DNA of 64,000 bases from Neodothiora populina (lineage: Eukaryota), in the NCBI RefSeq assembly GCF_041146345.1, contig NW_027191404.1:2356001-2420000 (forward strand). The letters run 5' to 3'. Every line of letters starts with the position of its first letter. Position 1 is the stretch's first letter. Shown in pieces: positions 1,048 through 57,600 of the stretch. The notes beneath the pieces are model-generated. The model was given only the letters and a program-made list of their open reading frames with translations, had not been told where the DNA came from and searched no databases. A program made the translations under genes and the position numbers.

Positions 1048-1134
1048 ATTGAGTCAGCAGGTTTCTGGTCGGATAGTATAGTATAGCTGATATCAGTAAT
1101 CGACTGCTCGAACAAATCAATTACATTTCCCAAA

Positions 1135-1195
1135 GGCGCGATTTGGATACCGGGACGACGCGAAGAAACGCGCCAAGAAGCAGACAACAACGCGA
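1135..1195. promoter_or_regulatory. Cluster of MCB-like CGCG elements in the RNH202/MCM10 divergent promoter
   Basis: GGCGCG 1135-1140, ACGCGA 1158-1163, ACGCGC 1168-1173 and ACGCGA 1190-1195, within ~410 bp between two head-to-head DNA replication genes. Confidence 0.5.
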
Positions 1196-1458
1196 CAGAC
1201 TCGGCTAAACATTCCCCGAACGGCCGGGGTTTGTTGAGTTTCACAGGCGCATGCAGGGAGTGCAGAGTGCAAGGAGAGATGGAGTAAAGAGTGAGTACGA
1301 CCGTATGCATGAAATAGCTGTTCCTTCAGGTCCTTGTATAGTCTGTTCATTCGTGTTTATTCGCCTTATCCATGTGTCCTGTGTCGCAAGTCTGAGGCCA
1401 GGGAATGACCGAACCCGCCCATGACCAAGTGTATATACTGTAGAGACAGGCAATAATC

Positions 1459-4209: not shown

Positions 4210-5011
4210 GCTTAGCTGTTTCTTGTTTCTCTTTTTCTCTTTTTTTTCTCTGAGTCGATCGCAGTGCCGACAGACACTTTTTCTTCTTCTAGCCCCCCCC
4301 CCCCTTTCTTGGGCTCGGAGTTTGGTACTTACTCTTCTGTCGCTCGGCAGAGCAAGAACAGAAGCCCTGTTCGAAACTAGGTAGGTAGCGCTTGACGGGT
4401 TCGTCTAGCTAGTACCTCTTTTCATGAAAGTCTTTCTTTTACCTGAGGAAGAGGAAGGAAACGGGGGATGATAGGACCAGCACTGTATCCTTTACCTTTT
4501 GTGTATTTTTACTTACATTAGTACACACGTTTTGTATAATTATCAAGAGCATCATGAGATAACTTCCGAATGACATTGGTCGATAACCCAATCTCTTGTT
4601 ATGATTTACCTTTGCGCAACCATCTGAGACAGGCACACACATCTGGTGTCGTGTATGGGAAAAAGGCCACGTAATTCTGATCTGATTGTGATTTTCTGTA
4701 TTCCTTCTCGCTTCTACTGAGGGGGTTGTAATACATGTGCCTTCGAGGACTCGTTAACTTCGGTTCGACATAAAATCTCCTGTCTGTCGGTCTGAAGCTT
4801 GTTCGCTACCTATCTGGCAAACCATTCTCATAGCCATCTTCAAGCCTCTCCAGAGGAACAGATGGAATATAGAGCAGCCTTGACTACTCAAAGGTGCTAG
4901 CGGTGCGAAAGGAAATGTAAAGAAAAAGGGAAAACCTCGTCTTGAAGCCAGATTGGATGGACAAGGGGAGGCATGAGCTACGACGAACCGCCATGATCTC
5001 GCCAGCAGCCA

Positions 5012-7264
5012 TCAGAGCTCCCATCGATGAACCTCGATAAGACACTCGGTACATTTGAGGATCAAGAAACGAGAATTGACATCTTCAGTGACGCCGCGGA
5101 AGGAAACTGGAAAGGGAGCGCAGCACTCCATGTTGTTGCAGCTGCGAATATCCAGAGACACATCCTTCAACGCGTCGAGGATGACGCGGGACTTGTGCGG
5201 AATATTGTGTGCCTGCAGGGGTGGGGGCCCGCCGCGGTTGTTACGGACTGGCTGATCGGATCCAGCATTGCGAGTTGGGACGGGCCAATTTCCTGCTCCC
5301 ATGTTGCCGTCGTATACAGGAGGACGGGTCGCGAAAGCTGGGGAAGGGCGTTGAGGGGTCAGGTTGCGAGCGACGGCGGTGTTCGACTGGTTCTGGCCCG
5401 TCTGTTGACTGCTTCCGAGAGTCTCAGGCTTCTTCATCTCTCTGTGCAACCGGGCGTTTTCGGCTGTAAGTCTGCGAATTTCATCATGTAGCTTCGCAAT
5501 GCGATGAGGCGAGACGCTTGCTACATTGATCGAAGCTTTGTCTGCTTCGGCCCTCAAAGGATTGGGGATCGCGTCCCCAGCATTCACCCTGATTATGGTA
5601 TTTTCGGCGTCAGTGGTAGTGACTGGTGTGGGCTTAGGTCCACCCACGGATGGAGACATCAGTCCTGATGTGATAGAGGCTGCCGACGACAATGGGCTCA
5701 TGGGGTCAGATGAGGTCTTTCCGGCTGCGTACCGACCCTTTTCATGGTCTCTAACGACCTTTTGGAGGAACGTCTCTGGACCTCCGTGAGAGACCTTGAC
5801 GCTGTCTGTAGCGGTACGTCTGTTAGCTACAGCAAGCTGAGCAGTCATCTTTGTGACTTTCTCCTGAAGGTTCTCAGATAGAGCCTTCCGGTCTGTACTG
5901 CCAGTTGCCTTGCCCGGGCCTACAAGATCCTGACTGTAGTTCCGAGAGTGGATTCTTCGCTGGGCCTGCTCGAAAATCTGTGTCTGACATCTCCGCTCGG
6001 TCTCTTCGATAGCCTTCTTGACAGAAAACTTAAGAGTCTCTTCCACACATGCGGCAGCTTGTTCACAGTTCCGTCTATACACCTTCTCGGCCGCACTTGT
6101 CTCTTCTTGACGACGAAGACGCTGGTCCTCAATGTACTTTTTGAGAGAAACCACTTCAGACGCAGCTCTCTCTTGGGCGGCGGTAGCAGGAGTCGATTTC
6201 ACAGCCGCACCTTCATTCTGCTTCATCACATTGATCTGACTCTTCAGATCTCTGACTTCCTTCTCGAGAGCCAACTTCCTGGTGTTTGCCGCAGCAAACC
6301 TGACCAAGAGGCGATGTTTCTCAAGACTTGCCTCGCCAAGGGGAATAGGATCTTCTGTCATGGGAGGAACGTTCACGTGCTTGGCTCTGAACTCAGCCGA
6401 GAGCGGTTCTGGGTCGTAGATTTCAACGACTGCATGGAGAAGCATGACAGTAAAGTCGGGAAATTCTTGCAGCAAAGCAGTGAAATCGTCAGCGAGTAAG
6501 AGCTCTACGATGTTCAGAGCGCACTCATGGGCAATCAGACGACAACCATCGTCAGTAAGCAGTCTTGGTCTAGTGGTCTTGATCGCAATACGCAGGAATT
6601 CGTAGAAGCCAAATGCTCGAGTACAGGCGTACAGGTGATGACTGAATTGAGTGATTGCGAAAGTTCTCAGGTTTGGGATCTTAAAGCTCGCGGCAGCCTT
6701 AAGCAGACGATGGTGGGTGAAGAGCGCCCTGAACTTCTCATTCGGAATGTCTTCTGGGCACTCAAGTTGAACCTTGTCGAGCCATTCGAGGCCGTTGCTG
6801 GAGTCACCATCAAGGCTCACGCCAAATTCATCTTTGTCGCCGAAGATGAGGTAAAGACTATCATTCTGTTTGCCAGGAGGAACATAACGCGATAACATCT
6901 CATCGGTCATCTTGTAGACGTAGATGTAATGATCCTCAACGGCAAAGGGCATGTTGTAGCAAAAGTGAACGATGCGATGAGTCGTTGCTATGTCGATGTC
7001 GTCCGAAATGCGTAATACCCGTGTCTCCTGGTCCTATAGCTGAGGTTAGTGAACGAAGCTTCCAGGCCTTCAAAAAGGGTAAGAACCTACCTCGGACTCA
7101 TCGTCGATCGAGCCTGCCATATGAGGTGATAATTCCTCGATCATGACTGTATGTCCCCTCCACACGAAATTACCATTGACAATCATGAGATCACAGTAGC
7201 GATCTAACATGGAAGGAGTGCCTGGACCTCGGTCCGGCAAGATCCTTGGCTGTACGCTTGACAT
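5012..7264 (-). CDS. BTB/POZ-like domain protein with coiled coil and C-terminal Cys motif (exons 7264-7091, 7033-5012)
   Basis: Spliced N-terminus DRYCDLMIVNGNFVWRGHTVMIEELSPHM...RVLRISDDIDIATTHRIVHFCY resembles a BTB fold. Intron 7090-7034 (GTAGGT..ACTAAC..TAG) is phase 0 and in frame with the 646-aa ORF. Confidence 0.6.
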
Positions 7265-8417
7265 CTTGAGGGATCCTAATGAGGGTTGGTATTCTGCGAA
7301 AGAACGCAAAGTATTGAGAAAGCGACGTGTTTTATCCCTTTGCTACAGCTTCAGTAAAGGTAAGAGCAGACTATCATATGCCCATGACAGCCGTGTCACT
7401 TACCAATGTGCTTCACCGACGTATCAAAAAGCCGACTCGCTTCTGCTCAAGAAAGTCTTGAAGCAAACGTTATCACTTTGATGTGAGTGTGCGGATCGAT
7501 CAACAAACAGACAGACGTAGTGAAGCAAAGCGAAGTGGGAGACGTGCGAAGTGAAGTTTATCAAAACAACAGACGTGAGAATTTTTTCAGGCAACGACAC
7601 GCCCTCCATCCTCGGCGGCGATGTTGCAGTAGTCATAAAAGACCCATCTGTATTCTCCCTCATATACTGAACAGATTAGCCTTGACACATGAGTTGATGC
7701 TTGCCCCCTAAAGATCATGTGATGACGTAGAGTCACCTCTTACTCATACAAAATCGCCTCATGAAGTGAGGCGTTCGTCGAGTCCATGAGACATGTCTTC
7801 ATTGCACCGCCTGTCTCTTCCCATACACCACACGGTGTGACAATCACTCAACACCTTTGTCGTGCCTAAGCCTTGAGCACCAGATCAAGGGTATCTCGTG
7901 CCCCATGGCAGAGTTATTCCATGTGAAAGATGAGGCCAGCCTCAAGAACAGTATCATTATTGTGACACAGATGTCTATACGAGGTCAGTAAGGGAGTGAC
8001 TGTTGGATGTGAGAGAATTACCGGTCTGTGACAATGACGGCTACTGTCATCATTTGACTGCAGTGGACTTTCAGCACCGCTGCGGCCGACTTGGTAGACT
8101 CAGTGATATATCATCACCCTGTCCATCACATGTCAGGTTGAGTTGACAGAAGTGTCGTGTGCTGGGTGAATATGAACACTAGTCATGCGTCTCTTACAAT
8201 GCCACGTCACTGAGGCTGGGATGAAGGGGGTTTAATACATCCTCTATAGCTCCTAACATCTATCCTTGATTGCTTCTGGTCGGCTTATGTTAGGTAGCGA
8301 ATCATTCGGTGGCGGGTCTATAAAAGCCAAGGTGTCCATGGCTTATCCTGTTCAAGTAGACTCAGTCAAAGTCAACTTAACGACCTGACAGCACATATTG
8401 TGTTGCTCCACAGTGCT

Positions 8418-11400
8418 CTAAATGCTTGCCCTACGTGGCGCCATCGTCCGCCGTAGGTTCTTCTTCTCTTCGGTCTCCTCCATGACGGGGAGGATACCCT
8501 TTTCCCTCAGTTCGTTCAAAAACTCTTTACCATATTTATAGCCGACATCGTAGATCTCGTCGAACTTTCCGAACTCCAGGGTACCGTAGGGGTCGATTGG
8601 TGGACGCATATATCTGCAGCCGGGTGTGACTTTGGCTCTCTCGAGAGCATCGACGCTTGACACATAGGCTAAGCGCGCCTGAATCTCGGATAGAGTCGGT
8701 GGATTGGGGAAGGCAGAGAATGGGTTCCAGCGATTGACAGAAGCCCAGAAGCCCGAGAGTGAGTCTCCGTATTCTTGAGGAACGTCGTCATCGATAGCAC
8801 CCACGTCTACGGCAAAGATGACGTCCGCTCCGAGAGACTTCATATGCGCAACCGTGAGATTGTCAATGTAACCGCCGTCCAGGAGCATGTTTCCTTCGTC
8901 GCAAAGTGGTGGGATCAGACCTGCCAGAGACATGGACGCACGGACATAGCGCCAGACGTATCCACTGGAATGTATCTCAGATCTACTTTTGCTGATATTG
9001 GTGGTGTTGCAATAGAATTCAAGCCAGAAGTCCTCGATTTGCGAGTCGCCGAATGTCTTGAAAATGCCTCTGTTGAATTCGTGGCCAGTAGTATAGGAAG
9101 CCCTGTTCAGTTAGTATTTCTTTGACCCTGCTCATGATATAGATAGACTTACGAAGGATATGTGAGGTCGAGGGCGAACCTCCACATACTACCCATGCGC
9201 CCTGCGAATTTCTTTGCTCGGCCATACATAGGAACAACATCTGCATCCCATGCGTATAGGGCACCAATAAAAGATCCAATCGAAGTACCACCAACAATGT
9301 CAATCGGAATGCCAGCTTCTTCCAGGGCTCGGATGATGCCTACGTGGGCTATGCCTCTCGCTCCACCTCCACCAAGGACAAGGCCAACTGACCTACCACA
9401 AAGCCTACGAGCAAGGCGGTGGAAGTCGCCCTTGAAAGGAGTCTCTGCAGAATACAAGGGCGTTTGCCGGACTTTTCGAGATGTGTATTTCTGAATTTCT
9501 GCTTGCAGGACTTGCACTCTTTGCTTGAGTGCAGTGCCAAAACGCCTTACTTGTGGATGCACAGGTTCAGCAGTACTGCGGAACGACATCTGGATATGGT
9601 GATGACTACCATTGATCCACACTCGATTACGTAGCCATTTCCGTGTCAGTCCAGGCGGACAGTATCTTTCAGCATGGAGCAAAACAAGTTCTTTTCTCGC
9701 AGTCGTTTTCGTCGTGAGCAGAAAGCGCTCATATTCGCCGATCCCAGGGGAGCCTTCCGCCAGACCCACCAACAGGATACAATCTGCCTGGCTGACACAA
9801 GTTGCTGTCCACGGTGACTTGACATTAGTGTCAGCCACATATAGGACCATGCCATATTTCTCTTCGAGGTCTGCTAAGTATTGAGACAGCTTCAATTTCC
9901 CCATTCGGCTGAAGGCATGGCGACCGAGATGATTCAAGATAGCTGCTTGGTTTAACGAGGTGACCCCGTTAGTTGTGCCAAGCTGACTGAGCGCGTTGAG
10001 CAAGCGATTACCAAACTCCACCACTGGCACGCCACCAGTGACTGGAAGGATAGCAATAGTCCTCAGATTTGTCGTCGAAGACACCTTCTGACGGGTTGCT
10101 AAGCGGCCATGTTCTCTGCCATTCTCATGGTTGGGGTCCTCAATCAACGCACGCATTCGTGTCGCGATGATTTTGGAGATCTTGATTGTGATTCCGGGAT
10201 GCTCCAGGGCCAGACTGTTGAAGAGTGTCTTGGGAAATTTGGCAAGCTCAGTCTCTCGGATGGCAAGCAGACTGCCAGGTCGTGTAGACTCTGTTAGTAC
10301 CTCAAGCTCTCCCACACTATCTCCTTGGCCGTACTCGTCGATCACTCGCACCTTGCCATCGTCCCCTTCTTGTATGGCGCGTAGACGACCGTTGAGCACA
10401 ATGTAGATAGCATCACTCTCATCTTTCTGGTTGTAGATGACCTGTCCGGCATTGACTTGCACCCATTCGAGAGCAAAGTCAATATGGAGGATAAGCCTTG
10501 GCAAGAGATTTGTCAATCTCTTTGCAAGCGTGAGCAGGACGATGGGGAACTTTTCGGTAATCTTCTCGACCACTTTCCTGGGGAGAAAGCCGACGTAGAC
10601 GTCAGTCTTTGCTGTCACCTCGATGAAGGACCGGTATGATGAGACGGTACCAAGGTAGCCGGCAAGTCCGCCAGGCTTCGTGATGAAGAGAGACTTCGAT
10701 CTGGACTTCCGCTTCTTACCCTCCGGATTCTGGTGACCACCATTCGGCTTCTCGAATAGATTTGGACGTGAATCGTCAGAAGCGCCAAGTCCATCTAGCA
10801 CGCTGTGGTCCGTCTCCGACTCATCCATAGAGACACCGACGTCCAGAAAACCATCAATGACATAGTACAGGCCCGGATTTCTTTCGCCTTGCTCCACCAG
10901 CACCGATCCTTTAGGGAAGAAGACGATTTCCACCTCGTCTTTGATGTCCTCGAGGTAGCTTGCATTGCCACCAGCATTGCTGATACCGGATGCCGAAGTC
11001 ATGGACTCAGTATCGCCATCTGCAGAAGGATCAAAGCTGTCCATAAAGCCAAATGCATTATTGAAGATGGCCTTCTGTCGCTTTGAATCGTAAGACACAA
11101 GCCGCGGTGATTGAGGCACTGAATCGGTCTTTCCAAAGTTCGCTTTCTCGTTGGTCAGACCAATCGCTCGATACATACAGTCGATGATTGATTCGCGAAA
11201 CATGGAGTCTTCATCGACGGATTCTTGTCGATGTAATTGGGATATGCTTGCATCGAAGGGGTTGAAATTCCTTCTGGCAAGTGGACTGCTCATGTCTCGT
11301 TCAAGTGGCTTCGGGGTTTGGAAAGGTTGTGAAAAGCTCTCACGACCTCTCCTACCGCCGCTTCGAGCCATTTGCGTATTTGTCAAAAGATCACCTGCGC

Positions 11401-17819: not shown

Positions 17820-18934
17820 ATGTCACAATTTACTTCGAATATGGAATTTGTCGGTCTGAGACCTACTCAGGAAAAGAGAAGGCCGAAGAACCCGAGGTCA
17901 CCCACTGTGGTATGCACTATCCGACTTTCTTCATTTTCAGAATATGTAACTGACCTTCTACAAAGATCGTAAGAGACAGTCTCTCTCTCACGACATGGCT
18001 CTGCTTGGGCGCAGTACTCCAGTCTGCTGCTTTCTTGTCAGTAGGACGGTTGGCATTCCTTCCCGCCACGGCGTATCTCGTGTATCGTGCAGGCGAGGCC
18101 TACGCCATGGCGACGGGGCTGATGAGGAATCCCTACATGGACAATGTAGTCATGGAGAAGCACTCTGCCCAGTTTCCTGATCCCGTGACTGGGAGATACG
18201 GAAGCACCCCGGGCAACAGCGACGTGACGCTGCTGATCATTGGCGCGAGATCCAATCATCCTTATGGTCTCATAGCTCCGGGCTTCAAGGCACTTGGCGA
18301 CCACATGTCGGGCATGATCGAGCAACTCCAAGGTCAGTTTCTGTCCCGCATCCCGCCGCATCACCAGCGCGAGCAAAGAAATCTCTGTGCGAAAAGCAGA
18401 CCCTAACCTCTCACAGAAAACCCAATCGACCACGGCTTCCTCGGCGCAAGCAGTTTTCTAGGCCAGCAACGCTCGACGAAAAATACGATAATGAGCATCA
18501 TGTACTTCAAGTCTGCAGCCGACGTGCACGCCTTCGCCGAGTCCCCCGTGCACCGCGACGCCGTGACTTGGTGGAACAGAATCGTCGGCGCGCACCCGCA
18601 CCTGACTATTTTCCATGAGCTCTATCAGGTCCCCAAGGGTAATTGGGAGAGTATCTACATGCAGAGTGCGCCCATTGGTGTCGCGGACACGATGCATCAC
18701 GTCTGTGATCCTGCCGCTACCGAGTCTGTCTTGTCGGAGAAGACTCCTCTTGTTGCCGCCACTGTCGCTAGAGAAAGCGCTCTCGAGGAGGCGAGGACGG
18801 GCGTTGCTTCTGCTCCTACTGCTGCTGCTGGTGCACAAGACGGTGCTGGCGTGTGGATGAGTCCCATCGTCGACGCACGAAGGGGTATCCTCAAGGATAG
18901 CGCGGGCCGCATGGGCTTGAGAACCAAGCACTAA
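17820..18934 (+). CDS. DUF4188 / af470-like monooxygenase-family protein (exons 17820-17909, 17966-18332, 18417-18934)
   Basis: Motifs GARSNHPYGLIAPGF, GFLGASSF, MYFKSAADVHAFAESPVHRDAVTWW and IFHELYQVPKGNWESIY; both introns are canonical and in frame. Confidence 0.75.
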
Positions 18935-43342: not shown

Positions 43343-45115
43343 ATGTGTGGCATTCTCGGAGTCATTCACGGAAACCCGTCCTCGACGGACGCTGCTGTTG
43401 AGATCCACCAAGCGCTCTACTACTTGCAGCACAGAGGTCAAGATGCTTGCGGTATCGCTACCTGCAACAAGGGTGGACGCATCTTCCAGTGCAAGGGCAA
43501 TGGTCTTGCCTCAAAGGTCTTCCACGACGGTTCGCGCGTGTCTGACCTCTCTGGCTTCATGGGTCTTGGACACCTGAGGTATCCTACTGCTGGCAGCAGC
43601 GCCAACGCAGAGGCCCAGCCCTTCTACGTCAACAGCCCTTACGGCATTGCCATGACTCACAACGGCAACCTCATCAATGCTCCCGCTCTCAGGGAGTATC
43701 TCGACAAGGAAGCCCACCGTCACATCAACACCGATAGCGACAGTGAGCTGATGCTCAACATCTTCGCCAACGAGCTCAACGAGACCAAAAAGGCCAGAGT
43801 CAACGCTGGCGACTGCTTTGCTGCTCTCGAGAGGATGTACAAAATCTGCTCCGGCGGTTGGGCTTGCACTGCCATGCTTGCCGGGTTCGGTCTGATTGGC
43901 TTCCGTGATGCCTATGGCATCCGCCCCATGGTCCTCGGATCCAAGCCTAACGAAGACGGTCACGGTACTGACTACATGATGGCTTCCGAGTCCGTCGCCC
44001 TCTCCCAGTGTGGCTACGGCAATGTCATCGACGTCAAGCCTGGCCAAGCTGTCATCATCGAGAAGGGATGCGAGCCTGTCTTTGCTCAAGTCCACCCCGA
44101 ACAGAGCTACACCCCGGACATCTTCGAGTATGTCTACTTCGCGCGCCCAGAATCTGTCATTGATGGTATCTCTGTCCACCGCAGTCGTCAACTCATGGGT
44201 TACCGTCTTGCCGAGAGGATCCGCCAGCAAATCCCCGCTGAAGAGCTCAAGAAGATCGACGCTGTCATCCCCATTCCGGAGACTAGTCTTATTTCTGCCT
44301 ACGCTGTGTCGAAGCACCTCAAGATCCCCTACTGTCAAGCGTTCGTCAAGAACCGATACATTTTCCGCACATTCATCATGCCCAACCAAAAGGCTCGTCA
44401 AAAGGGTGTTCGAGCCAAGCTCAACGCCATTCCCATCGAGTTCCAAGGCAAGAACGTGCTCCTTGTTGATGACAGTATCGTCCGTGGAACCACTAGTCGT
44501 GAGATCGTCTTAATGGCGCGCGAAGCTGGCGCCAAGACCGTTCACTTCGCTAGTTGTGCTCCTCCCATCACTCACGCTCACATCTACGGTATCGATCTGG
44601 CCTCGTCCTCCGAACTCATCGCCCATGATCGTACCGAGAAAGACATTGCCAAGCAGATCGGCGCCGACTCTGTCGTCTACCAGACACTTCAAGATCTTGA
44701 GGAATCATGCGCGCAGACCAGCCCCCGCGACCCTGCTACTCAAAAGTTCGAGGTTGGTGTCTTCTGCGGCAAATACGTTACCCCCGTCGATGACACATAC
44801 TTCCAACATCTGGAACGCATGAGAGGAGACGCCAAAAAGATCAAAGTCCTCGAGAGTGCAAGGGAAGCTGTCAGACAGGGAACCGCAGAAGAGGATCAAG
44901 TCAGGATGGCCGCTAATGGCGTGCATGTTGACTCACAAGGCAATGTGGTCCCGGCCGACGGAGGCAACGCAGATCAGAAGGCCGCAGCGGCTGCATTGGT
45001 GAATGGCGATGCAGGTGAGAGACCTGCTCGTCCTGGTGCAGGATCGCATAAAGAGGGACTTAGCCGTGGCGAGAGTCAAGACATCTCTCTGCACAACCTT
45101 AACGACGAGCGATGA
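43343..45115 (+). CDS. ADE4: Amidophosphoribosyltransferase
   Basis: N-terminal [23 protein letters not shown], and PRPP motif [14 protein letters not shown]. Confidence 0.97.
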
Positions 45116-46355
45116 GTACCGGAATGATGGGATTACATAAGGCGTTTGGCGCGACGATAAGCTCGTAGATGCTACCAATGGGGGCAGGCTGGTGACGGAG
45201 GGGACAGTCGCTATTGTTTACATAGACCAGAGAGGGGAAGCCTCATAGCAATCATACTGCATTTTGTCTTGATGATATCATCCACTCTGTAGTGTCGTGC
45301 GTACGTGCTGCAACGAGTAACATGTGTTGTTGGTCTCATTTTTCCGCCATATCCACCAACATGGCCTTCGGCCGCAGGCTAAGCATCGGTTCCCGACGCT
45401 CATGAAGATACCGGGACAGATTCGATGTCAATTTCCCAGGACAATCGGTATAGCAGACATGTGTCAGTCCATCGGCTAAGCGGTTCAGTGATCGGACGGG
45501 AGCCCTGCCAATGACTCGAGTTTTAGTTCCAGGCCGAATGTTGCGCTAGAAAAATAATTCGATCCCACCACACATTGGTGATGACTCCAAAATAATTCAG
45601 ACCATTCCAACTCGTCGTCCTGCATCGAACTTCGTCATCGTCGATCAAAGTGGAAAAACGTCGAGTCGAGTCGTGCTAGCAGCAAGAAAGTCTATCCCAT
45701 CGTCTACTTACTCGTTAGTCGACTGCCACGTGCCACGAGAAGCGAGATGAATGAGTAGAAGAGAAAAAGGCAAGCACAAGGAAGGCAACCTTGGGACAGA
45801 AGACCCAGGATTCGGGGACGTGGTACAGTACAGTAACGCGACGCGCTTTTACACGCACAGTGACAAGATTGTCAAAGATAAGTCCTGTGCGACTATCCGC
45901 GGTCGAGTCGACCTAGTTCTCGCAATTCAACGGACGGCTGCCCATTGCGGCTTCCAACATGAACCTGCGCACAATCAACGGGCTATCTATCTCGTGTCGC
46001 CAAAAACGGACGTTCACACTGTTTCATGGAAGCATTACCTTCCTCTACAGTCGAAGGTACTTGTGCTACCTAATCAAGGAGGTCGATATTGCATATCTCG
46101 ACGGAGAAAGCCGATGGGGAAGGGATCGCAATACACAACATCCAGTGCCGCTGAGCTCGCGATTCATCATGATATGTGATACGAAACATCACATCAGCCG
46201 GTGCCATCTCCAAGGAAAGCTAAGTGCGTGATCCAGAGAAGACGACGATGAGTATTCCAATCTCGCTTTCCACACTCAACCTACAGTTTTGAATCGGGCC
46301 TTTTCTTTCTTTACTATTTTCCACATACACACTATGATTGTTCATAAGGCATGCA

Positions 46356-46997
46356 ATGCCCCCCAAAAGACCAGCAGCGTCTGCTTCAATCGCGGATACG
46401 CGCCTCGGTCTAGCCGCAGAGGAGCTGGCTCTTTTCCGCCAGCATCGTAGTATTGCTCTCGGGCAGGCGCCACGCACAAGTGGCGCAACCACAACCACTC
46501 ACCATGTGAACGCTACTGCCCAGCTTCGGAATGGAGGTACGCTGGACTCTACAGGTCTTCAGCTCATGACGACTCATTTTGATAGAGTCATGATGTCCAT
46601 TCAGCAGCGTCTGGAAGCCGTGAGTATGCTCGCTTGATATCCCCAACCACAAGTGCATCACAAAGTATGGACGCAAGACAACGTTCACGCAGCAATCTGA
46701 TGGCTAAGAAACGAAATGAAGGAAGAGAAATGATAGAAAGAAAAAACATTTTCTCACAATTTATCCCCCACATAGTTGCATCGCGACACTCGGCTCGCTT
46801 CACAGCGACATGCTCGACAGCAGCAGCAGGCTCAAGTGTCCGTCCAGGCAGCCAATGCGGAAATTGCCAGGATGCATTCGATCCTGAGACAGATTGACGA
46901 GCTGGAGACGGAATTCGACAAGATCCGCCGCATTCGAGACATCGTGAGGACATATAGAGCACGAATCGAGGACTTGGACCGAAGACTCGGCGGATGA
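46356..46997 (+). CDS. CNL1: BLOC-1 subunit Cnl1-like protein (intron 46620-46775)
   Basis: DTRLGLAAEELALFRQH...ANAEIARMHSILRQIDELETEFDKIRRIRDIVRTYRARIEDLDRRL matches the fungal Cnl1 pattern I recall; intron GTGAGT..TAG is in frame. Confidence 0.7.
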
Positions 46998-47349
46998 AAG
47001 GAGAGAGGTGTCCATTGGGACCCATTGTATCTGTGGAAAGCACAGGGAAGGGAAGGAGAAGAATTCTTCGCGCTACGAGTATGTCTCAAAAGTGGGACCA
47101 CAAGTAAAGATAGATCAGCACTAATGAGGGCAAAGGGCGCGTTGCACGAGGGAGATACGCGTGAGTCCGAGTCACTCTACTTACTCAGTGATCGCTACAA
47201 TCAGACGCAGGAGTGGGATGAATGGATGGCCAGGCGGGCATGGCATTATGCACAACTGATCATACAGGATGAGAAGCATGCATCCGAATACAAGACATGT
47301 GCACTAAAGCAGAACCTGTACAGAGGATAAAAAAGCCTAGACACAGCTA

Positions 47350-50080
47350 CGACCATTCAGGACAGCGCCGGCGCTCGCTCACAGATTAGGTCGATAGTGT
47401 ACTACCATAACATAACAGGCAGTTCGCTGTTCGCTCAATCCGATATCTATACTTGTATTAGTTCCAAGAGGGTCGCACGTTGCGATCAACATATCTGATA
47501 GGGCAATTCGGAATCAAGTGCATGGAGCCGTATCTTCCAGGGGGGATTTTTCTTTCATCCTTCGCAAAAAGTGCTCATTATTTTTCCATGGTCGGCGCTA
47601 TCTGCCCCGTCTCGCACATGGTTTGCAAGGATATATCTGCTACCCGCCTCCACAATAGCAAAAAAAGATTGATCTTGAGAGTGACCATCAGGGTTATTAC
47701 GCGATGATAAGCTGTGCGGGGTCTCATAGATAGGCGATCAGAGTACCTGAATGGACGATATACATCGCACGGACACAAGGCCGTATGCGATGATGATTCT
47801 CCAACAAGATGTTGCGTGCTATCTCGACATCGACCTTGGTTGGTCTTATCGAGATAGGACATGACTGAATGCAGCGCCTGGGTTTCGATACAAAAGGGAG
47901 CCTTGTTCCCCCTTCCAGCAACGTGAGCTGTCACCTAAATTCGGAATCAATGTGACCGAAACTCTGGCTTCACAAATCCCCCAAGGTGTTAGACGAGATT
48001 CGCATTCCCAGACCCTTGTATGCTAGATCCGAACTATGGTCCCCCGGATATGTACCACACTACTACTATGACACTACACAACACACCTCCCATTCAGATG
48101 ACCGACACCGACTATTCGGATGGGGGTGTTCTTGCACCCACTGCGACCTTGATCTAAGGTGCCCGCAAGTCATGTCCAGGATGACATGGGTCGGTGACGA
48201 GTGACAATCCTGAGATCGGCTTCGCACATGTCACAGCGTCTACTGCTATAACTACGGAGGATCCAGTCGAGTCAGAATTAAGGATCCAACATACCTTGCT
48301 TTTTCTCAGGACGGCACTTCTGGCAACATGTGCCAACCGACGAATTTTTCCAATGAAAAGCCAAGGTCACAAGGACGACGTAACAGCGATCCCCAATCTG
48401 GACATTTGATGGGAGCTAGAGTTTCCTACCATCGTATTTGCTTTTGCTTTATTCTTATTTGCCTTTGGTGTGGTAGGTCGAGATCCTTCGCCCCGAAAAC
48501 ACCCCCTGTCCCGCCTTCCGTCATGCGGACAGGCGTGCCGTGGACCTGATGTGATTGCAATAACTCGCTAGCATGCGACTTGAAAACGCGCTGGACGGTC
48601 CGCTTGAGATTTCTGGGGCCATTCTTGTTAATTGTTCCAGCGCGGTGCAGTAAGGCCCGCGGTGGTGCCTGACTCAGGAATATGGAAGAACCGGCAGCCC
48701 AGCACGGATGTGCGCTGTTACAGCTTTCGCATTGCTTCGCAATCGAGGCTTGTGCTGCAGCGATCCAATTAGGTATGTTGTCTTGCGTTTAGATGGGTGC
48801 ATTATGATTTACCAACCTCGGCTGGGGAGACACGAGTCGACCCACACGCGAAATTATCGGCGTTTGATGGCTCGCACAGGGTCTCACCAAGCCACGAGCC
48901 CTTGTCTGGGATCCGCACTTGTCGCTCACCCACTTCTCTTAATTCGGATGGTACCATGACGGAAGCTAAATGGAATAGGTCGCGTTGAGTAATTAGCCAA
49001 CGCTGTCCAACCAGAATACGGTCCTTTCGAGTCTATGAACCTACAATGTATTTCTCACATGGCGTTTAGCGAGCGTTGTACCTCCGTACTCGGTCCGCAA
49101 GACTGAAGCGCGCGACACGCCCCGTGCTAGAATGCCGGGCAACTGGTCGCGTGTGTGGCGTGTAGCCATCTTTGACACTTCTCCGCGCCGAATGCGACAC
49201 CGGGGCAATCGTCTTTTGCCAATCCATACGCACTGTTACAATAATATCCAAGTCGTGCGAGTGGAAATAGCGGAGGATGACCAAAAACGAGCATTCCGCT
49301 GCAAAAATCTATCTGCCCAAGCTGCAACATGATGTAGGAGAGCTGCGACCTGGTACATCATGTGCTTCAGCGCAGAACATCGGATGGCTTGCATATCTTG
49401 CGGTCGCGAGCAGCTCCTTGTACCGCGGGGTGTGTAGCGGCCAATCGGCTAACTGTAAGGAGACGATGCCTCACCTTGCACCACGATGCGGAGGGTAAGT
49501 ATGTGGGTGCTTAGCCAGCGCCTCGTTCCGGAAGGCTTGCTTGTTTGTTCGGGTCTATCACGGGATGGCCGCATACAACCCAGTCTCGACCGGATCCTTG
49601 ATTACGAGCCATCCTGTTGGGCGACATTGCTTCGGTAAGTATGTCCACCTAACACAATCATTGATTTGACAATTTCTGCATATATTCTTCATTTCTAATA
49701 ATGACAACCATCTTGTAAAAAGGCTTGACGATCATACGTGTCGCGTGGAATATGATTCATGTTTGTACAGTGAGTTTTGTACCCGTCAAGCCTGACTTTC
49801 TATTCCGCCTAAAAAAGGGTTAGGCTATAGCGTAGTAGAGGGAGCCCGCAGATCAGGGTTTTGTTTCGGAAAATTACGGGCTTGGTCCTCGGTAGGTTGG
49901 ATATGTGGATCACTGCAGTAGTGGCCTTTGACTCGAGTCAGTTCTATATTACTTTCTGTGACTATGAGGCAGCAGTCTATATCAGGAGGACGCTTCATCC
50001 GTCACAAGTATCTGGATGAAGCACTCGAGCCATGCTCAATAAATGCAGTGTTAGCAGCATGTGAAACCTGATCATCAGGT
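47350..50080 (+). ncRNA. Candidate large structured non-coding RNA (identity unresolved; some telomerase-RNA-like traits)
   Basis: No credible ORF. Many 9-15 bp helices, e.g. 47958-47970/48413-48425, 48515-48525/48955-48965, 49327-49336/49354-49363, 49390-49404/49422-49436 (5 G-U) and 49721-49730/49784-49793. The G-U bias and a cUUCGg loop favour the + strand. Boundaries are approximate. Confidence 0.5.
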
Positions 50081-51345
50081 GTTGGTCGGACGAGCATCCT
50101 TGGAGTGGATGGGTTTATGCGGCGTGGGGTGGAGGAGGGCGTCAAGCATGTGAAAGAGCTAGGGAACGCCAGGGAACACGGGGTTGGCGAAAGGCTTCTC
50201 GACGGCGAAATCAGCCGAAAAGAGCATAGCGGGTGGGTCGAGCGGACGTCTGTCAATGTGAGAGATGCAGCAAGTCGTCATCAGTAGTCAAGCGGCAATA
50301 AGTCAAGGCTAAATGCCACTCCTACACAGCCGCCTCTGGTTGGGCACCTTAGCTTGTGCATGGAAAGTTGGATGGAAAGGTAGACAAGCTCGAGTATGTT
50401 CTGTACATTGTACATTCCAGGGAGAAAAACTCCGACGTCGAGCGACGTATGTACCGTGTGTAAACGGCTGAACAATTTTTTTCACTTCGTTCGGCGAGAC
50501 GGGATGTACAAGTGCCGTGCCCTCAGTCGAGGCTATAGCATGGCTCAGGCACAATTAAAAAAAAAAGGTTAGCTACCGTGACAAGCAGTGCAGTAGCACC
50601 TAGTCCTTGTCGTAGTGTATTGCAGTCTGTAATAATGATGATAGTTCGCGTGGTGGTTGAGGGTTCTGCACCGACACACATGCGACCACCGTTCAACAAG
50701 ATGAATGTGGAGTTGCGTCTGCAGGCGACTAGGCGAGCAGAGATCGGCCGAACCACCCCACTATTACAGGTGGTTTTAATAAAATAGCAAATAGCCACTG
50801 GCGTGGGCATTCATATGAATGGATCAGAGTAATGAGCATCGTTTTTCAGGGTTCATCAATGTCGGTAGTCAATACTCAATGAAGGGAGAGGCGGGCCTCG
50901 CAGACGGCGATAGCTCGAAGTATCCTCCCCACTCGTTTCTTGGTCCTGGCTTTGTCGGTGGCAGCGGGTGCACCGGTCGAGCATACTAGTCCAGCCACGC
51001 ACGAGATCTCGAGTGGGACCTAGCGACGAGCAGTAACGCTAGGGTCGGGTCTTGCCCTGACCATTTGTCGGCTTCACTAGACCATTTTTACAGTGGCAGC
51101 TCGAACGAGAGCGAAAGGGTACCTTAAGGTTAGTTGCCCGTGTACATGCTGACCACTTCACACGACTGGGTGCATCGCATCGCATCGCATTACCACCAAC
51201 TTACCCGTGCCTCTCCCACCAACCAACATTACCACCATACCTGTGACGCTCCTTTCCTCTCTCACCAAAGCAGACAAAGTACAGTATTGATCTCTCCAGA
51301 CTCAGTCAGCGATTGCATGTATTGCCTCTACTTTTGAGCCGCGAA

Positions 51346-54300
51346 ATGGCGTCTGCGTCCGTATCTGCATCTGTATCTGCGTCTCATTCGGGACGTGGGG
51401 GTCGAGTCGGAGACCCTAGCAACAGCACTATGGACTCGTCCGCCGCCGTCACTCCTTCCTCACCGCGACCCCTCCATTGCGAAATACCATCTTCCGAGAC
51501 ATCGTCGGCGATACACTCTCTCACATCAGCAAGTACCATCGACAGCAAACTGGATCTATCACCAGACTCGAGTGCTCGCAAGGGCTCGCTGCTGCGCGAT
51601 TCCTTCTTCGACAACTGGAGGGACGATGGCGGCGCTGCTGTATTGGGTTCTCCGGAGGAGATGCAGCGAAAAGATCCGCTTGCCACGCAGATTTGGAAAC
51701 TATACAGCAAGACCAAGACACAGCTTCCCAATGCAGAGCGCATGGAGAACTTGACGTGGAGGATGATGTCGATGAACCTGCGCAGGAAAGAGCAGGCCAG
51801 GTTACGTCAAGAAGAGTAAGAGAGCACCTTCCCCATTCTTTACGCACTTGCCATTGTTCTTTCACTCTATTTCGCCCTCGTCCAGCACCACCCCAGTCCT
51901 GCTTTGTCACAGTAACAACACCACCTTTATCATCATCATCATTATTATTCAACATGTTTGGCGATGTGCCCACAAGACAGCATCAGCTTACCAGCCCTTG
52001 TCAAATAGACTCTTCCGGGCCACACAGTTCTCGAGTCCAATGGCGGGCAAACAAAATGCGCCCAGCGGCATTGCCCAACTACGACAGTCCGCTGACCAAC
52101 AGGCGCTTGGAAAGAACGGTGCCGCTGTCCACACTAACACCAACACTGCCGAGGCAATGAACCTGGACGACTTCATAGTCCCCTCCTCAATAGCATCCCC
52201 CAGCGCCATCTCGCCGGGTGCGTCGACTACTAGTGACCAGCCTGTGGTGTCGACGACAGCTTCCGCCATCCCCATACGAAAGCAGCAACAGCTCCAGGAG
52301 CAGGACTTCTCTGGTGCCAGAGCTTCCGCTCCCACCACTCAACAGCAAACCCTCAAGGCCAACGGAGGCGACTTTGACTACGTTCAGCGTCATGTTCGCA
52401 AGACGAGCATTGACGAGCGACGAGTATGTATCGAGTCTTCACAAATCACACCGAATTCATGATTACTGACCCCACCGCAGCCTCCGAAGCGACGAGCAGA
52501 CTGCTCGCCTCAAGTCCCTCCTCTGAGCAACAACATGGGCCCCAACGATCTGGGCAATGACCACACCATCCATGAGTACTCTCTGGACGGCTCTCACACT
52601 TTCCAAGCCCAGCACCAGAACTCGCAATCTCAGGTGCCTTTCTCCCTCGATACCTTCAACTTCGATAACTCGAACAACGATCCTTTGCTGTCTTCGGCTG
52701 GCCCGTACCAGCAGCAATTCACTTTCTCGCCTGTTGGCTCGCCCATGATCAGCAATGGTCCGTACACCAACATGTTCAACCAGGCAATGTCAATGCCGCC
52801 GCCGATATCTAGCAGCTACTGCTCTCCTGCAGCTTCCGCCTATCATTCGACAGTTTCGACTCCTCAGCCTCTTCAAGAGAACGAGCAAGTCTTCTTTGGA
52901 TCCTCGAACAGCGTGGACTTGAGACAACATGCCCACATGGGAAGCTACAATCCTAGTTCTCACCAGCAACATGGATCGACCAGTTCCATGCAACAGCAAC
53001 AACAACAACAGCAGCATCAGCATCAGCAGCAGCAACAGCAGCAACAACAACAACAACAACAACAACAATACATTTTCAGCCCTAGCAACGACAGCATCTT
53101 CAGCGCTGTGACAACGGGGCCGCCCTCGGCGTCGTACACGCAATCTGCCTCTTTCAGCATACCGGGTCATATCGATCCCACCGATGTCCTGCCTACAGAC
53201 TTGACTCCTGGTGGCCAGCTCTTTCAGAACAACGAGAACATGTTTTCATTCGGCGGAGACTCAGACAATGAAGACGACGAGAGTGGCAACTTCAACGACC
53301 GCAACCCGTTCATGATGCAGACCGACTTCTCTCCAATTGAAGATCCGTCAATGTCAGAATATCGCTGGGATAATGGTATGAACGGAGCTTTCAATTCTCT
53401 TCCTGCTCGTTACGCTGGCGCTCCCGCACGTAAAGGTGTCAATTTCGGACACACTGAGATGATTCCTCCTTCTCCGCAAGATTGGTCAGTTGGTAGCCTT
53501 GGCCGAACCCACGGTTCCGCTGCTTCAGTCAGTGAGATTCGCAATCGCGGCAACGACCCTCGAAGCAAAAAGATCCCACGCACAAGCTCCACACCCAACG
53601 CGGCAGGCATGGCCCAACATTCCATGTTCTCCATCCGACCTCAGTCGTCGCCAACTTCGCCTCCGGAGTCTGGTTTTAGCTCCATTGCTCCTTCCAGAGC
53701 TGGTAGTCCCAAGCCTGGCGACAACAACGGTGTCCCTACCACGTGTACCAACTGCTTCACACAGACAACGCCCTTGTGGCGTAGAAACCCGGAAGGACAT
53801 CCGCTATGCAACGCATGTGGTCTGTTTCTGAAACTCCACGGTGTTGTTCGGCCCCTCAGTCTGAAGACAGATGTCATCAAGAAACGCAACAGAGGCGGCG
53901 GTGGCGCACCTCCACTGCCCGGGCCTCCTGGACGTTCCAAGAAAACCGCCAGCAGGAAGAACTCTGTTGTGCAGACACCAGCCACCACTCCGAAGAACTC
54001 CGTGCATGACTCTGAGTCTCCCAACTCCATCATGGGATCGGGCCAGTCAACCAGTGGCAACACGCCCACCAGTTCGACGACCGCACCAGCTCCAGCAAAG
54101 ACCACCGTGGTACCGATCGCGCCTGGACCGCCGAAACCTCCCGTCGCTGCGTCAGGCCCTGCTCCTACTCGTTTAGTCGCCCCTAGGCGTCAACGGAAAC
54201 AGAGTCGCGCTGGACAACTACAAGAGGTAGAGATGGGTGATGCTGATGACACAAACGGAAACATGAACGGGCTCAAGGCGAGGGATACGCAACCGGCCCC

Positions 54301-54466
54301 TCCAGCCCCATCAACAAGCCTCACCCCGAACTTCTCGAACATGCCTTCGCCTCCACAAGGCCTAATGATGGGCAATACTGGCTCAGCCGGTCAGATGACC
54401 GGCCCGCCGCCCCCTGGTATGACTGCAGGCCCACAAGAGTGGGAATGGCTCACCATGAGTCTATGA
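51346..54466 (+). CDS. areA: GATA nitrogen regulator AreA/Nit2 (exons 51346-51815, 52009-52423, 52481-54466)
   Basis: [13 protein letters not shown]...[24 protein letters not shown] finger [33 protein letters not shown] and C-terminal EWEWLTMSL. Confidence 0.97.
52991..53068 (+). repeat. CAA/CAG polyglutamine tract in AreA (26 codons, Q8HQHQ15)
   Basis: Direct reading of the sequence. Confidence 0.95.
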
Positions 54467-54502
54467 GATGGTCTACTTTCACAGTCGCTCGAATACGTAA
54501 TG

Positions 54503-54694
54503 TCAATGTTGCGTCGTCCAGTGACCTTGGAAAAGAGTCAATCTTTTCCAAGATTACGAGACCTCTGAAACGCAAGACATTGCCGTCAAGCAAAGGTTTC
54601 CCCTTTTCTCTCGTTTTGATACCCGCCCATTATACCTTTTGGGGCTTTCTTGGTTCGACTCTTCATCTCCGAGGTCTCGAAAAGAGGCCTCGGA
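54503..54694 (+). promoter_or_regulatory. Stem-loops in the areA 3' UTR
   Basis: CTTGGAAAAGA-gtcaa-TCTTTTCCAAG (54526-54552) and TCCGAGGTCTC-gaaaa-GAGGCCTCGGA (54668-54694). Confidence 0.55.
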
Positions 54695-57600
54695 CCGGAT
54701 CTGGACTTTTATTTATACGTCAATTTGCACAAGGTGCAATCTAGCGCCTAATCTCGCAAGGAGTTCCGGATGATTGTGATGTCGTTTTGGACATACTATT
54801 TCTCACATCTTGTTACTTAGACTCGGATTCGATCCGATATATGGTCTTTTCTCTTACGATCTTAGAGTGGTTTTGTTTGCTGGACATTCCAAACTCTGGA
54901 AGAGTGGTGGCGGTGTCAAGATTTGCAATGGTTTTTTTTCAGTTTGTTTTGGTTTTCCTTGGTCAGTGATTGATAATGACGGCTGATGATGCCTCATGAG
55001 GGATGAGATGATAGTCTGCAATGTTGTACACAGGCAGACAGGCGGCGAATATAGATATATTTCTTGGTGGTCACTATCAGTACTAATTATTCGCTTGGTT
55101 TTATGGGAAAGACTGAATTCTGATATCTGCAAATTTTCCCGTCTGACGATGAAGGTGATTGTATGATATGAATCTGCTTAAATGTCGAGTATCTACTGTT
55201 GGCTGTGTCTAAAGCGTGCGATGCACACTAGCCCCGGTAGGAGGAACGACCATCAATCGGCCGGGGACATGAGTCGAACAGTGCCTGTAGCATGGCCCAC
55301 CATCTCGATCACCGTAAACAGAGCGGCGGAGATAGTAGACCAACCAAAATAAAAATGAGCAAGTCCGATGTCTACCGCTCTTACCGCAATTACCCTTGCT
55401 GCCAATCCGGCACCGTCTGCTCACTCTACTCTTTTGGACCAAGTAAGATGATAATTCAAGTAAGGTAATAATGATAGTGGCTACAGTAGAGACTAAGAAA
55501 CAAAAAAAAGAACATGCTACCACACGGTTACACTGACTACCTTAGCGACATGTGGTCCACCTCGACTCGCTCCTACCCACGAGCAGCACATAACGACGAC
55601 TACGACGCGGTGAAGGCGGACTAAGGTAGGCACTTAGAGCAGGAAGACGACTACAGTACAAACGAATGTAATGCTATGACGATAACAATCTGCAACGCCG
55701 ACATACCCTACCTTCCTTTACCTCAAGGGACATCGTAGAGGAGCTGGACTGGTCTGAGCCGACGACTATAGTGATTGGTACGAGGTCGTACATATTTCTG
55801 TCCCATAACGGTCTGTTCACAGGTCTTTTAACTCACTTTAATGGCTATACTCTTCCAATCATCACACATGAATTCATGTGCGTGATGAGACGAAGCTACC
55901 TTACTTACCACCTCTCCGTCCCCCTTACCCTCTTCCCTTCAGCAATAAGAAAACCGATCCAGACGACTACGCCAATGATAAAACATTTCGTCACTTCACC
56001 ATCAACCGAAAACCAAGGGGAAAAAAGTTCAATCTAATCCTACCATAAAACAGTTTTGTCCCATCGGAGTCTTGCTCGGTGAGAAAGTGGGGACCAACCA
56101 GCGCTGACCTTTAAACCGGACTGGACTGGAGCTTGTTTTGGTTTGTTTAATTGTGGGACTTCGCTGGTTGCTCTGGGACTGGAGCTGTAACTGCGTTGCT
56201 TTGCTTGCTTGCGTGCATATACTGAATTCGGAAGGGGGATGATAGAAGGGCAAGGGGCTGATGAAGTTGGGATATACTCGATGGGAAAAGGGGGTGGACG
56301 GATATACTACGCTACACGGTATCATATGGTTGGTCACGTAGAGTTGTCGGTTAGTCAAAGTGGATGCATCGAATAATAGTCAGTCAATCAAGATCCCGAA
56401 TATTTGTTTTGAATCGTGAGTAGTGTGCATTCTCATCGAGTAAGGACTTTGGCTGCGTTTACTGCTCATAGGAGAGCGCTTTTCGGGGCTTGGAGTTCTC
56501 TCTGTATTGATTTTCTCTGTATCTACGAGATGATCTTGGCTATGTAGCACTACGAAAGATGTTACTACACGATTGATGGACCTCGAGGTCATCTCTGCAC
56601 TATTCACATTCTTGATGGATGTGCTGCTGTATGTGACCAGACACACAAGAAGAAGGCATATCCAAGCCAGAGGTCTGAGACCTACTATTGCTGCGACTCG
56701 TCTAGCCTCTTCCTGATTTTCTGTATCCCGTGAAATCTCACAGGGTGTTTTGCACGTCTGCCATGTGGTTGTGTAGATGCAAGGATACAATACAATTCAC
56801 GACATACAATTACCAACACCAAATGTCATGGTTATCACAGCTGTCTTCCATGTATATCCTAGAAAGCTTGTTTTGCTAAGGGACGAACGACAGTAGAGAA
56901 AAAAACGCGAGATCTGCGAAAGAGGCTTCGCAATGGTTTTCTCCATTCGGGTTCATTGTAATAATGTCTTGGTCAGATGCGCGAGTACGGTGTACCCGGC
57001 TGGCCGCTTACCTATAAACCGTTCTATGGCTGGAGTAGGTCACCTAGGGTATGAACCTAATGTTGGATTTACGATACAAGTACCTTGTTCATGGCATTGT
57101 AAAGCCATGACCATGATGCAAACACGCATGTAATCCAAGCGGCGGGCCCTTGGCAGACACGAAAAGGTCTGTGAAGAGCCAGAAGGAATATCAACGGGCG
57201 AGAGGAATCCGAGGCTTGTTTTGCTTTGTCTTTGCGCACCAGCACTGCGCATCGTGTAATTGCATGTAGTGATCAGATCATAGTGTGTAGCCGGAGCGGA
57301 ATTGTTATGTTGCTTAACTCCGCTCTTCGGGATCAGAATATTGAAGCCACACGGCAGAAACCAATGGATACTGTCCCTTGTGGTGAGCTTACAATGTTGA
57401 TGTCTTACTACGCTTGCCATGCTTCCGTCCCGTCCTCGGAAAGCGGATAGACGAAAGGCAAGGTCCCAGAGGAGCCTTGCTGCGGAAGTGAGACCGGTTG
57501 TTGAACGCCTGTGTGCATGGCGTGTTGTGGCTAACTGACGCTGACCATGCGGCACATACATACCAGTGTACATGTACCTTGGCTAGCGAAGGACATCCGC

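Follow-up and report, generated by a model that had tools for sequence, protein, structure and literature searches.

A dense GATA motif cluster and low-level non-coding cDNA, and not one large folded RNA, in the distal CNL1–areA intergenic region of a Dothideomycete

This report concerns positions 47350–50080 (the interval) of a 64-kb stretch of fungal DNA, which we call the window and which is meant at its whole length. The interval forms the distal portion of a non-coding gap of 3.8 kb that separates two + strand transcripts, that of a gene named CNL1 in the preliminary description of this DNA (transcript end at 47438) and that of areA, the nitrogen master regulator (transcript start at 51215), and it is not one large folded RNA. 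Its place inside this gap follows from the gene map, which was obtained from cDNA. The interval holds a dense cluster of GATA motifs and is partly covered by cDNA; no coding signal and no excess of folding energy were found in it. We lean towards reading it as upstream regulatory DNA of areA with an associated non-coding transcript. On this reading, AreA or another GATA factor would bind the cluster at 47381–47880, which would act as a distal element in the autogenous control of areA, as the promoter of a neighbouring non-coding transcript, or as both, and the weak unspliced transcription of two segments (segment A, 47946–48833, and segment B, ~49103–49722) would represent a promoter- or enhancer-associated long non-coding RNA (lncRNA). 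A large structured RNA or a telomerase RNA beside areA, both of which had been considered in the preliminary description, would have been notable, and the tests reported here do not bear them out. What remains is modest, namely an unannotated low-level non-coding RNA and a dense GATA cluster far upstream of the nitrogen master regulator.

GATA motifs far upstream of areA

The GATA cluster at 47381–47880, flanked by the CNL1 transcript end on one side and segment A on the other, contains 15 GATA cores and 8 HGATAR sites. This is the highest GATA count among the 500-nt windows of the 64 kb, with a runner-up of 10 cores and 5 HGATAR sites, and in dinucleotide shuffles 15 cores were attained in 4 of 2000 and 8 HGATAR sites in 2 of 2000 cases. 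The HGATAR sites all fall within 47392–47857 and include closely spaced ones at 47705/47728 and at 47819/47846/47852. According to the available portions of one article (PMC4528345), AreA recognises HGATAR and generally requires two adjacent sites. At least two HGATAR sites close together are found in the cluster, and, judged from its motifs, 47381–47880 is a region where AreA or a different GATA factor may bind. One of the helices listed in the preliminary description, CTATCTCGA/TCGAGATAG at 47819–47857, consists of two HGATAR sites in inverted orientation, separated by ~30 bp, and a further site lies at 47846; this helix reads better as paired candidate binding sites on DNA than as an RNA stem.

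In the available portions of the literature, areA transcription is described as increased through autogenous regulation (PMC8683493; autogenous regulation also in PMC3314646), and the AreA-bound pnmB promoter of Aspergillus nidulans is described as carrying 12 GATA motifs, 5 of them HGATAR, in ~1.3 kb (PMC8683493). The present cluster is similar to the AreA-bound GATA clusters of A. nidulans in that many GATA and HGATAR motifs lie close together, some of them ~30 bp apart and inverted, here upstream of an areA orthologue. It differs from the pnmB promoter in being denser (15 GATA in 0.5 kb), and from the A. nidulans AreA systems in its location 3.3–3.8 kb from the areA start, directly past the 3' end of another gene. 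If the cluster is an areA autoregulatory element, it would give studies of autogenous control in Dothideomycetes a specific sequence to dissect. To our knowledge, which rests here on a weak literature search, areA autogenous control has not been mapped in this class.

The relatives available for comparison were 18 metagenome AreA loci with AreA identities of at most 56%. In L003 and L018, whose AreA exon is 48% identical to that of the window, the top HGATAR cluster (7 and 6 sites) has an offset of −5100 to −4800 relative to the main areA exon within a locus of 21.8 kb. The window's own cluster lies at −5100 from the main areA exon, that is, at the same offset. L003 and L018 share 98% identity and so count as one independent lineage. 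No other distant lineage offers sufficient DNA upstream of the gene; L009 and L002 are too short for a comparison of upstream clusters. The position of the GATA cluster is possibly conserved in this one distant lineage. Loci matching in the zinc finger only gave mixed cluster results. At the DNA level, similarity between the relatives and 47000–51500 did not exceed chance, the best match being 22 nt with E 0.015, and translated comparison of 242 open reading frames (ORFs) from L003, L008 and L009 with the interval yielded at most 24.6 bits. No upstream genes are shared between the window and the metagenome relatives.

The upstream neighbour of areA in L003 and L018 is a gene for a CREG-like beta-barrel protein (L003 3330–4361), not CNL1. 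It is followed in L003 by a ~4.4-kb gap without Pfam match before areA (4365–8840), which has frames of at most 204 aa and 10 HGATAR sites at 4686–5612.

In the window, a perfect 13-nt direct repeat, AATTCGGAATCAA, is present at 47505–47517 and 47938–47950. The two copies are 433 nt apart and flank most of the GATA cluster, and segment A begins within the second one; ~0.15 repeats of this kind would be expected per 4.5 kb.

Unspliced non-coding cDNA in the interval

Transcription was assessed with run X2, which is listed as 'DNA?' and shares its sample of origin with the assembly. The run behaves as cDNA: the flanking genes show 5 GT..AG joints, and a loose poly(A) end is seen at 45272. It could serve to annotate the whole window. 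Two unspliced segments of the interval are covered. Segment A is a single 889-nt X2 contig with a word depth of 4.3. Segment B has a depth of ~3.6, an adapter-joined right end and an approximate left end, which was calculated from bin depths of 3.38 and 1.77. In the flanking genes, the depths were 6.4–9.8 for CNL1 and 15–35 for areA. Because other intergenic bins were at zero, a uniform carry-over of DNA is unlikely. X2 cover is missing at 47439–47945, from 48834 to ~49102 and at 49723–51214, these uncovered parts being contig holes at low depth and no proof of silence. An intron in place of the gap between the two segments was ruled out, as GT..AG is absent at 48834/49102 on either strand.

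The preliminary description had called the interval ORF-free, and it is indeed free of long frames. The longest stop-to-stop frame in 47400–51200 is 120 aa, and none of the 36 interval ORFs of at least 50 aa reached the Pfam cut-off (best E 0.028). The codon-usage scores of 48 interval ORFs had a mean of −0.145 and a maximum of 0.069, while the window's long ORFs averaged +0.125, although the classifier is weak, its training set containing antisense shadow frames. For an interval ORF of 111 aa the protein search found no relative, and the 3 matches of the 120-aa ORF were sums of 20–33-aa matches of different query parts to FN3-type repeat proteins. Both cDNA segments are treated as non-coding. 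With contigs of 889 nt and ~620 nt they are transcribed, longer than 200 nt and without coding signal in these tests, the properties by which intergenic lncRNAs are recognised. Of the undescribed lncRNA upstream of areA that had been suggested, these two unspliced non-coding segments stand, but the depth is low, the length is ~1.5 kb and not 2.3–2.7 kb, and the RNA is not highly structured. Neither the gene areA nor an lncRNA upstream of it is mentioned in the available portions of a review of fungal lncRNAs (PMC12566771), which does not mean that no such lncRNA has been published.

The same cDNA could belong to one of the mRNAs on either side, representing a leader transcribed from a distal promoter of areA or resulting from CNL1 read-through. 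Both neighbours are on the + strand with the segments between them, and the GATA cluster would be well placed as the promoter of a + strand start near 47946. We nevertheless consider this account very unlikely, since no cDNA spans 47439–47945 or 49723–51214 and no X2 joint was found within the interval, which leaves the segments without a link to the CNL1 or areA transcripts. In addition, 51215 does not qualify as a splice acceptor, as it is preceded by CT and not by AG. A long structured 3' untranslated region (UTR) of CNL1, another of the initial suggestions, does not agree with a CNL1 contig that stops at 47438 and is followed by the uncovered stretch up to 47945.

The contig end at 49722 carries the same loose letters as the one at 55123, which we take to resemble a nanopore ligation adapter, and no poly(A) was seen there in X2. 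This end could mark where an RNA truly ends or where reverse transcriptase stopped at a hairpin at 49721–49793, or it could stem from a duplicate molecule, and due to these several possible origins it was not used for strand assignment. The hairpin in question, AGGCTTGACG/CGTCAAGCCT, is an inverted repeat of 10–11 bp that begins where the cDNA cover ends. Run X3, which belongs to another study and to a source coded organism B, has short identical contigs within segment A (48029–48413) and segment B (49244–49453) plus a partial match of 37 nt, and no contigs on the flanking genes. As X3 is of uncertain kind and was selected via the interval, no conclusions about expression or habitat were based on it.

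Such segments could also arise if open chromatin upstream of areA were transcribed pervasively or cryptically, in which case the RNA would be functionless and the repeats and GATA density a matter of chance. A depth as low as ~4, the lack of an overall folding excess, a repeat excess that is gone at 8 nt (see below) and the lack of sequence or translated similarity between the interval and the corresponding regions of L003, L008 and L009 would all fit. However, the depth is about half of that of CNL1 while other intergenic bins are at zero. Moreover, no other part of the 64 kb has GATA motifs so densely packed, and one distant lineage shows a cluster with an equal offset from areA; we find this account rather unlikely.

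An extended version of the regulatory reading, which we regard as a long shot, would have the GATA cluster drive a non-coding RNA from ~47946 towards areA, responsive to nitrogen via AreA and feeding back in cis. Its layout, consisting of a distal GATA cluster, ~3.5 kb of non-coding DNA and areA with differing upstream neighbours, would be conserved in distant Pezizomycotina, and the + strand hairpins of 49103–49722 would form a functional module. In yeast, SRG1 upstream of SER3 is an intergenic lncRNA that acts in cis on the downstream gene. The likeness consists in a non-coding transcript upstream of a regulated gene, whereas the cDNA here stops ~1.5 kb before the areA start and a cis effect on areA is putative.

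Folding energy and inverted repeats

The interval had been described as a highly structured RNA. RNAfold z-scores were computed in 150-nt windows with a step of 75 and 30 dinucleotide shuffles, giving 36 windows per strand, and on both strands they were indistinguishable from those of control DNA. On the + strand the mean z was −0.16 and the minimum −1.62, with 0 of 36 windows below −2. The − strand had a mean z of −0.29 and 2 of 36 windows below −2 (47775–47924, z −2.86; 48225–48374, z −2.08). For the control, which comprised 254 window-strands at 1–9600, the mean was −0.07, with 4.7% below −2, and no difference between interval and control was found by Mann–Whitney test (p 0.24 for + and 0.14 for −). 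The statement that G-U pairs work mostly on the + strand turned out to be reversed: the interval has 15 ungapped G-U-permitting stems of at least 11 bp on + and 33 on −, the means of 23 tiles being 20.1 and 24.3, respectively.

All nine pairs of helix arms quoted in the preliminary description are present where they had been placed, and 8 of the 18 arms recur elsewhere in the window. Perfect inverted repeats of at least 9 nt (loop of at least 3, span of at most 500) lying wholly within the interval number 13, compared with an average of 5.51 ± 2.27 (mean ± sd; maximum 13) in same-size windows at a step of 100, of which 0.2% attain 13, a comparison that is post hoc because the interval borders were drawn round these repeats. 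In 200 dinucleotide shuffles of the interval the mean was 3.75 and none attained 13. Restricted to local repeats of at least 9 nt (span of at most 100), 5 of the 23 in the window are inside the interval, with 1.0 expected. At a threshold of 8 nt, the interval has 6 local repeats versus a mean of 3.5, and 21% of windows attain 6. Hence, the impression of far more strong helices than in other intergenic DNA is correct for perfect repeats of at least 9 nt but is lost at 8 nt, and the excess of perfect repeats brings no added folding energy in the 150-nt windows of the interval. Counts of perfect inverted repeats read by eye should be viewed with caution, as they are no predictor of folding stability.

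Whole-segment folds gave z +0.59 (+) and −0.92 (−) for segment A, with 20 shuffles each. For segment B, z was −2.48 on +, where 2 of 150 shuffles folded equally well or better, and −0.94 on −, with 32 of 150 shuffles as good; with 20 shuffles the values were −2.82 and −0.61. As four segment-strand tests were made, the p of ~0.013 for segment B on + nears 0.05 once corrected and is borderline. The + strand signal comes from the hairpins 49327/49354, 49389/49437 and 49560/49608, of which the first two are the main contributors. These two adjoin each other at 49327–49437 on the + strand. The stem at 49327/49354 is a perfect one of 10 bp, and the one at 49389/49437 comprises 16 bp, 6 of them G-U, and forms on + only. 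Both appear in the minimum free energy (MFE) and centroid folds, and the 150-nt windows over them have z of just −0.02 and −0.67. The folding of segment B on + is the sole piece of the earlier structure picture that survives, and it survives weakly.

A functional structured + strand lncRNA, which corresponds to the lncRNA suggested in the preliminary description, would extend over at least 49103–49722 and perhaps over 47946–49722, with hairpins selected as RNA. The difference in z between the two strands of segment B, the 16-bp stem that forms on + alone, perfect repeats of at least 9 nt at the window maximum and the presence of the segment in cDNA are in line with such an RNA, as are an AT-rich run and the motif AATAAT, presumably polyadenylation-signal-like, just upstream of 49722 on +. 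But beside the correction for four tests, no 150-nt window of the + strand falls under z −1.62, the z of segment A on that strand is positive, the 15 G-U stems on + compare with 33 on − and lie under the tile mean of 20, and no poly(A) was seen at 49722. We judge a functional structured lncRNA of this kind unlikely; a small structured element within the interval is possible.

Several of these results weigh against areA regulatory DNA with an associated transcript. The GATA cluster was found by a scan, and its shuffle p of ~0.001–0.002 is borderline given ~128 independent 500-nt windows. Between it and the start of the areA transcript lie 3.3–3.8 kb, and its target could be CNL1, or it may have none. 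The support from relatives comes from the single lineage L003/L018, while in L008 the top cluster is weaker and 3 kb farther upstream, and in L014, L011 and L002 the top HGATAR windows are downstream of the gene. The cDNA contigs supply neither strand, true ends nor a reliable expression level. Finally, both the excess of perfect inverted repeats of at least 9 nt and the z of −2.48 for segment B on + are left unexplained and leave room for a structured element.

The strongest local z-scores of the CNL1–areA gap lie outside the interval, at 50325–50774, just upstream of areA and without cDNA cover. They were −3.17 (+) and −1.91 (−) for 50400–50549, −2.74 (−) for 50625–50774 and −2.18 (−) for 50325–50474. 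A TGTACAT tandem is located at 50402–50416.

Comparison with telomerase RNAs

A telomerase RNA (TER) with a non-canonical repeat had been put forward as one explanation of the interval. In the available portions of two articles (Kuprys et al., PMC3603654; Qi et al., PMC3592445), the hallmarks of a TER include a single-stranded template of more than one telomere repeat, a stable boundary helix ~2 nt to its 5' side and a pseudoknot with U-A.U triples adjoining the template. The former reports a CCCUAA template core in 13 of 13 Aspergilli TERs and a 3' end marked by an Sm-like CGGC(3-5)U(7-12), by AUAAGU or AUACGU as 5' splice site and by GCUAACU as branch point (Kuprys et al., PMC3603654), and the latter a P6/P6.1 three-way junction in which a 4-bp P6.1 stem closes a 5-nt NUNGN loop (Qi et al., PMC3592445).

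Within 47000–51300, CCCTAA is absent on both strands. The earlier observation that the + strand has no UAACCC/CCCUAA template was confirmed, the + strand having at most CCTAAC, of 6 nt, and no template for TTAGGG. The sole telomere-like 9-mer in this region, both strands considered, is CCUAACCCU at 49824–49816 on the − strand. It was rejected as a telomerase template, being half paired and without cDNA cover, and ~2.9 such 9-mers are expected per 64 kb on both strands. In the fold of 49960–49690 (−), which has z −1.69, the GCCUAA of CCUAACCCU pairs with UUAGGC in a small hairpin, and no boundary helix ends 2 nt before the motif. The Sm-like CGGC(3-5)U(7-12) had no match in 47000–51300. Among the other 3' motifs, a single GCTAACT was found on + at 49448, without an AUAAGU-type site upstream, and no correct order was found on −. 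The scan of 47300–50300 for P6.1-like elements gave 0 matches on + and 2 on − (49712 and 49120), each with one G-U pair; by chance, ~0.9 would be expected. Of the two, the one at 49120 comes after a hairpin, and in this simple scan no P5 pairing was seen.

An Rfam search had been suggested together with the TER proposal, and it returned no family match. Rfam includes an ascomycete telomerase model. Rfam 15 gave 0 matches at gathering score across the whole window, and at E up to 10 only unrelated weak matches on 5.7 kb and 2.1 kb.

A TER that used CCUAACCCU as template on the − strand, or a non-canonical template on the + strand, could appeal to a non-coding transcribed region of ~1.8 kb, to the CCU at either end of CCUAACCCU, as a template requires, and to the 4-bp stem with its 5-nt NUNGN loop after the hairpin at 49120 (−). 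Set against these are the lack of CCCUAA, of an Sm-like site, of ordered 3' motifs and of an Rfam match, the position of CCUAACCCU off the cDNA cover, half paired and with ~3 expected per 64 kb, P6.1-like matches numbering 2 with ~0.9 expected, each with one G-U pair, and a + strand without a TTAGGG template. We therefore regard a TER as extremely unlikely. Compared with Pezizomycotina TERs (2049 nt in Neurospora crassa, ~1.6–2.1 kb in Aspergillus), the interval is likewise non-coding, intergenic, kb-sized and transcribed, with one telomere-like 9-mer. It differs from them in having no CCCUAA, no Sm-like site, no AUAAGU/GCUAACU pair, no Rfam match and no folding excess, and in that its template-like motif is outside the cDNA cover. 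The neighbours of Aspergilli TERs are other genes than those found here, according to the available portions of PMC3603654; as the source organism is a Dothideomycete, this synteny argument is weak.

The only other telomere-like stretch of at least 8 nt in the window is ACCCTAACC at 18400–18408 (+). It was also rejected as a TER template, as it lies among ORFs of 139–215 aa on both strands and without TER 3' end motifs nearby.

Neighbouring genes and minor features

Based on a comparison of the areA exon, the source lineage is a Dothideomycete near Dothideales. The 643-aa areA exon has 72% identity to Delphinella strobiligena and 60–61% to Aureobasidium, with a top match of 78%, and PF00320 (GATA-type zinc finger) is the family listed for its relatives. 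The areA transcript covers 51215–55123 on the + strand, with the contig start at 51215, the ATG at 51347, introns at 51816–52008 and 52424–52480, and the end of the stop codon at 54466.

No tRNA genes were found across the window, and no tandem repeats within 47350–50080.

The CNL1 transcript, under the name given in the preliminary description, covers 45625–47438 on the + strand, with introns at 46665–46721 and 47079–47135 and the cDNA contig end at 47438. The name is without Pfam confirmation, the best relevant match being BORCS6 with E 0.071, under the cut-off. The second intron, a spliced 57-nt GT..AG intron, begins ~80 nt past the stop codon of the 46776–46997 frame and is apparently a 3' UTR intron. 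Upstream of CNL1, a gene of 590 aa at 43343–45272 has Pfam glutamine amidotransferase and phosphoribosyltransferase domains and is amidophosphoribosyltransferase-like; its cDNA terminates in poly(A) at 45272.

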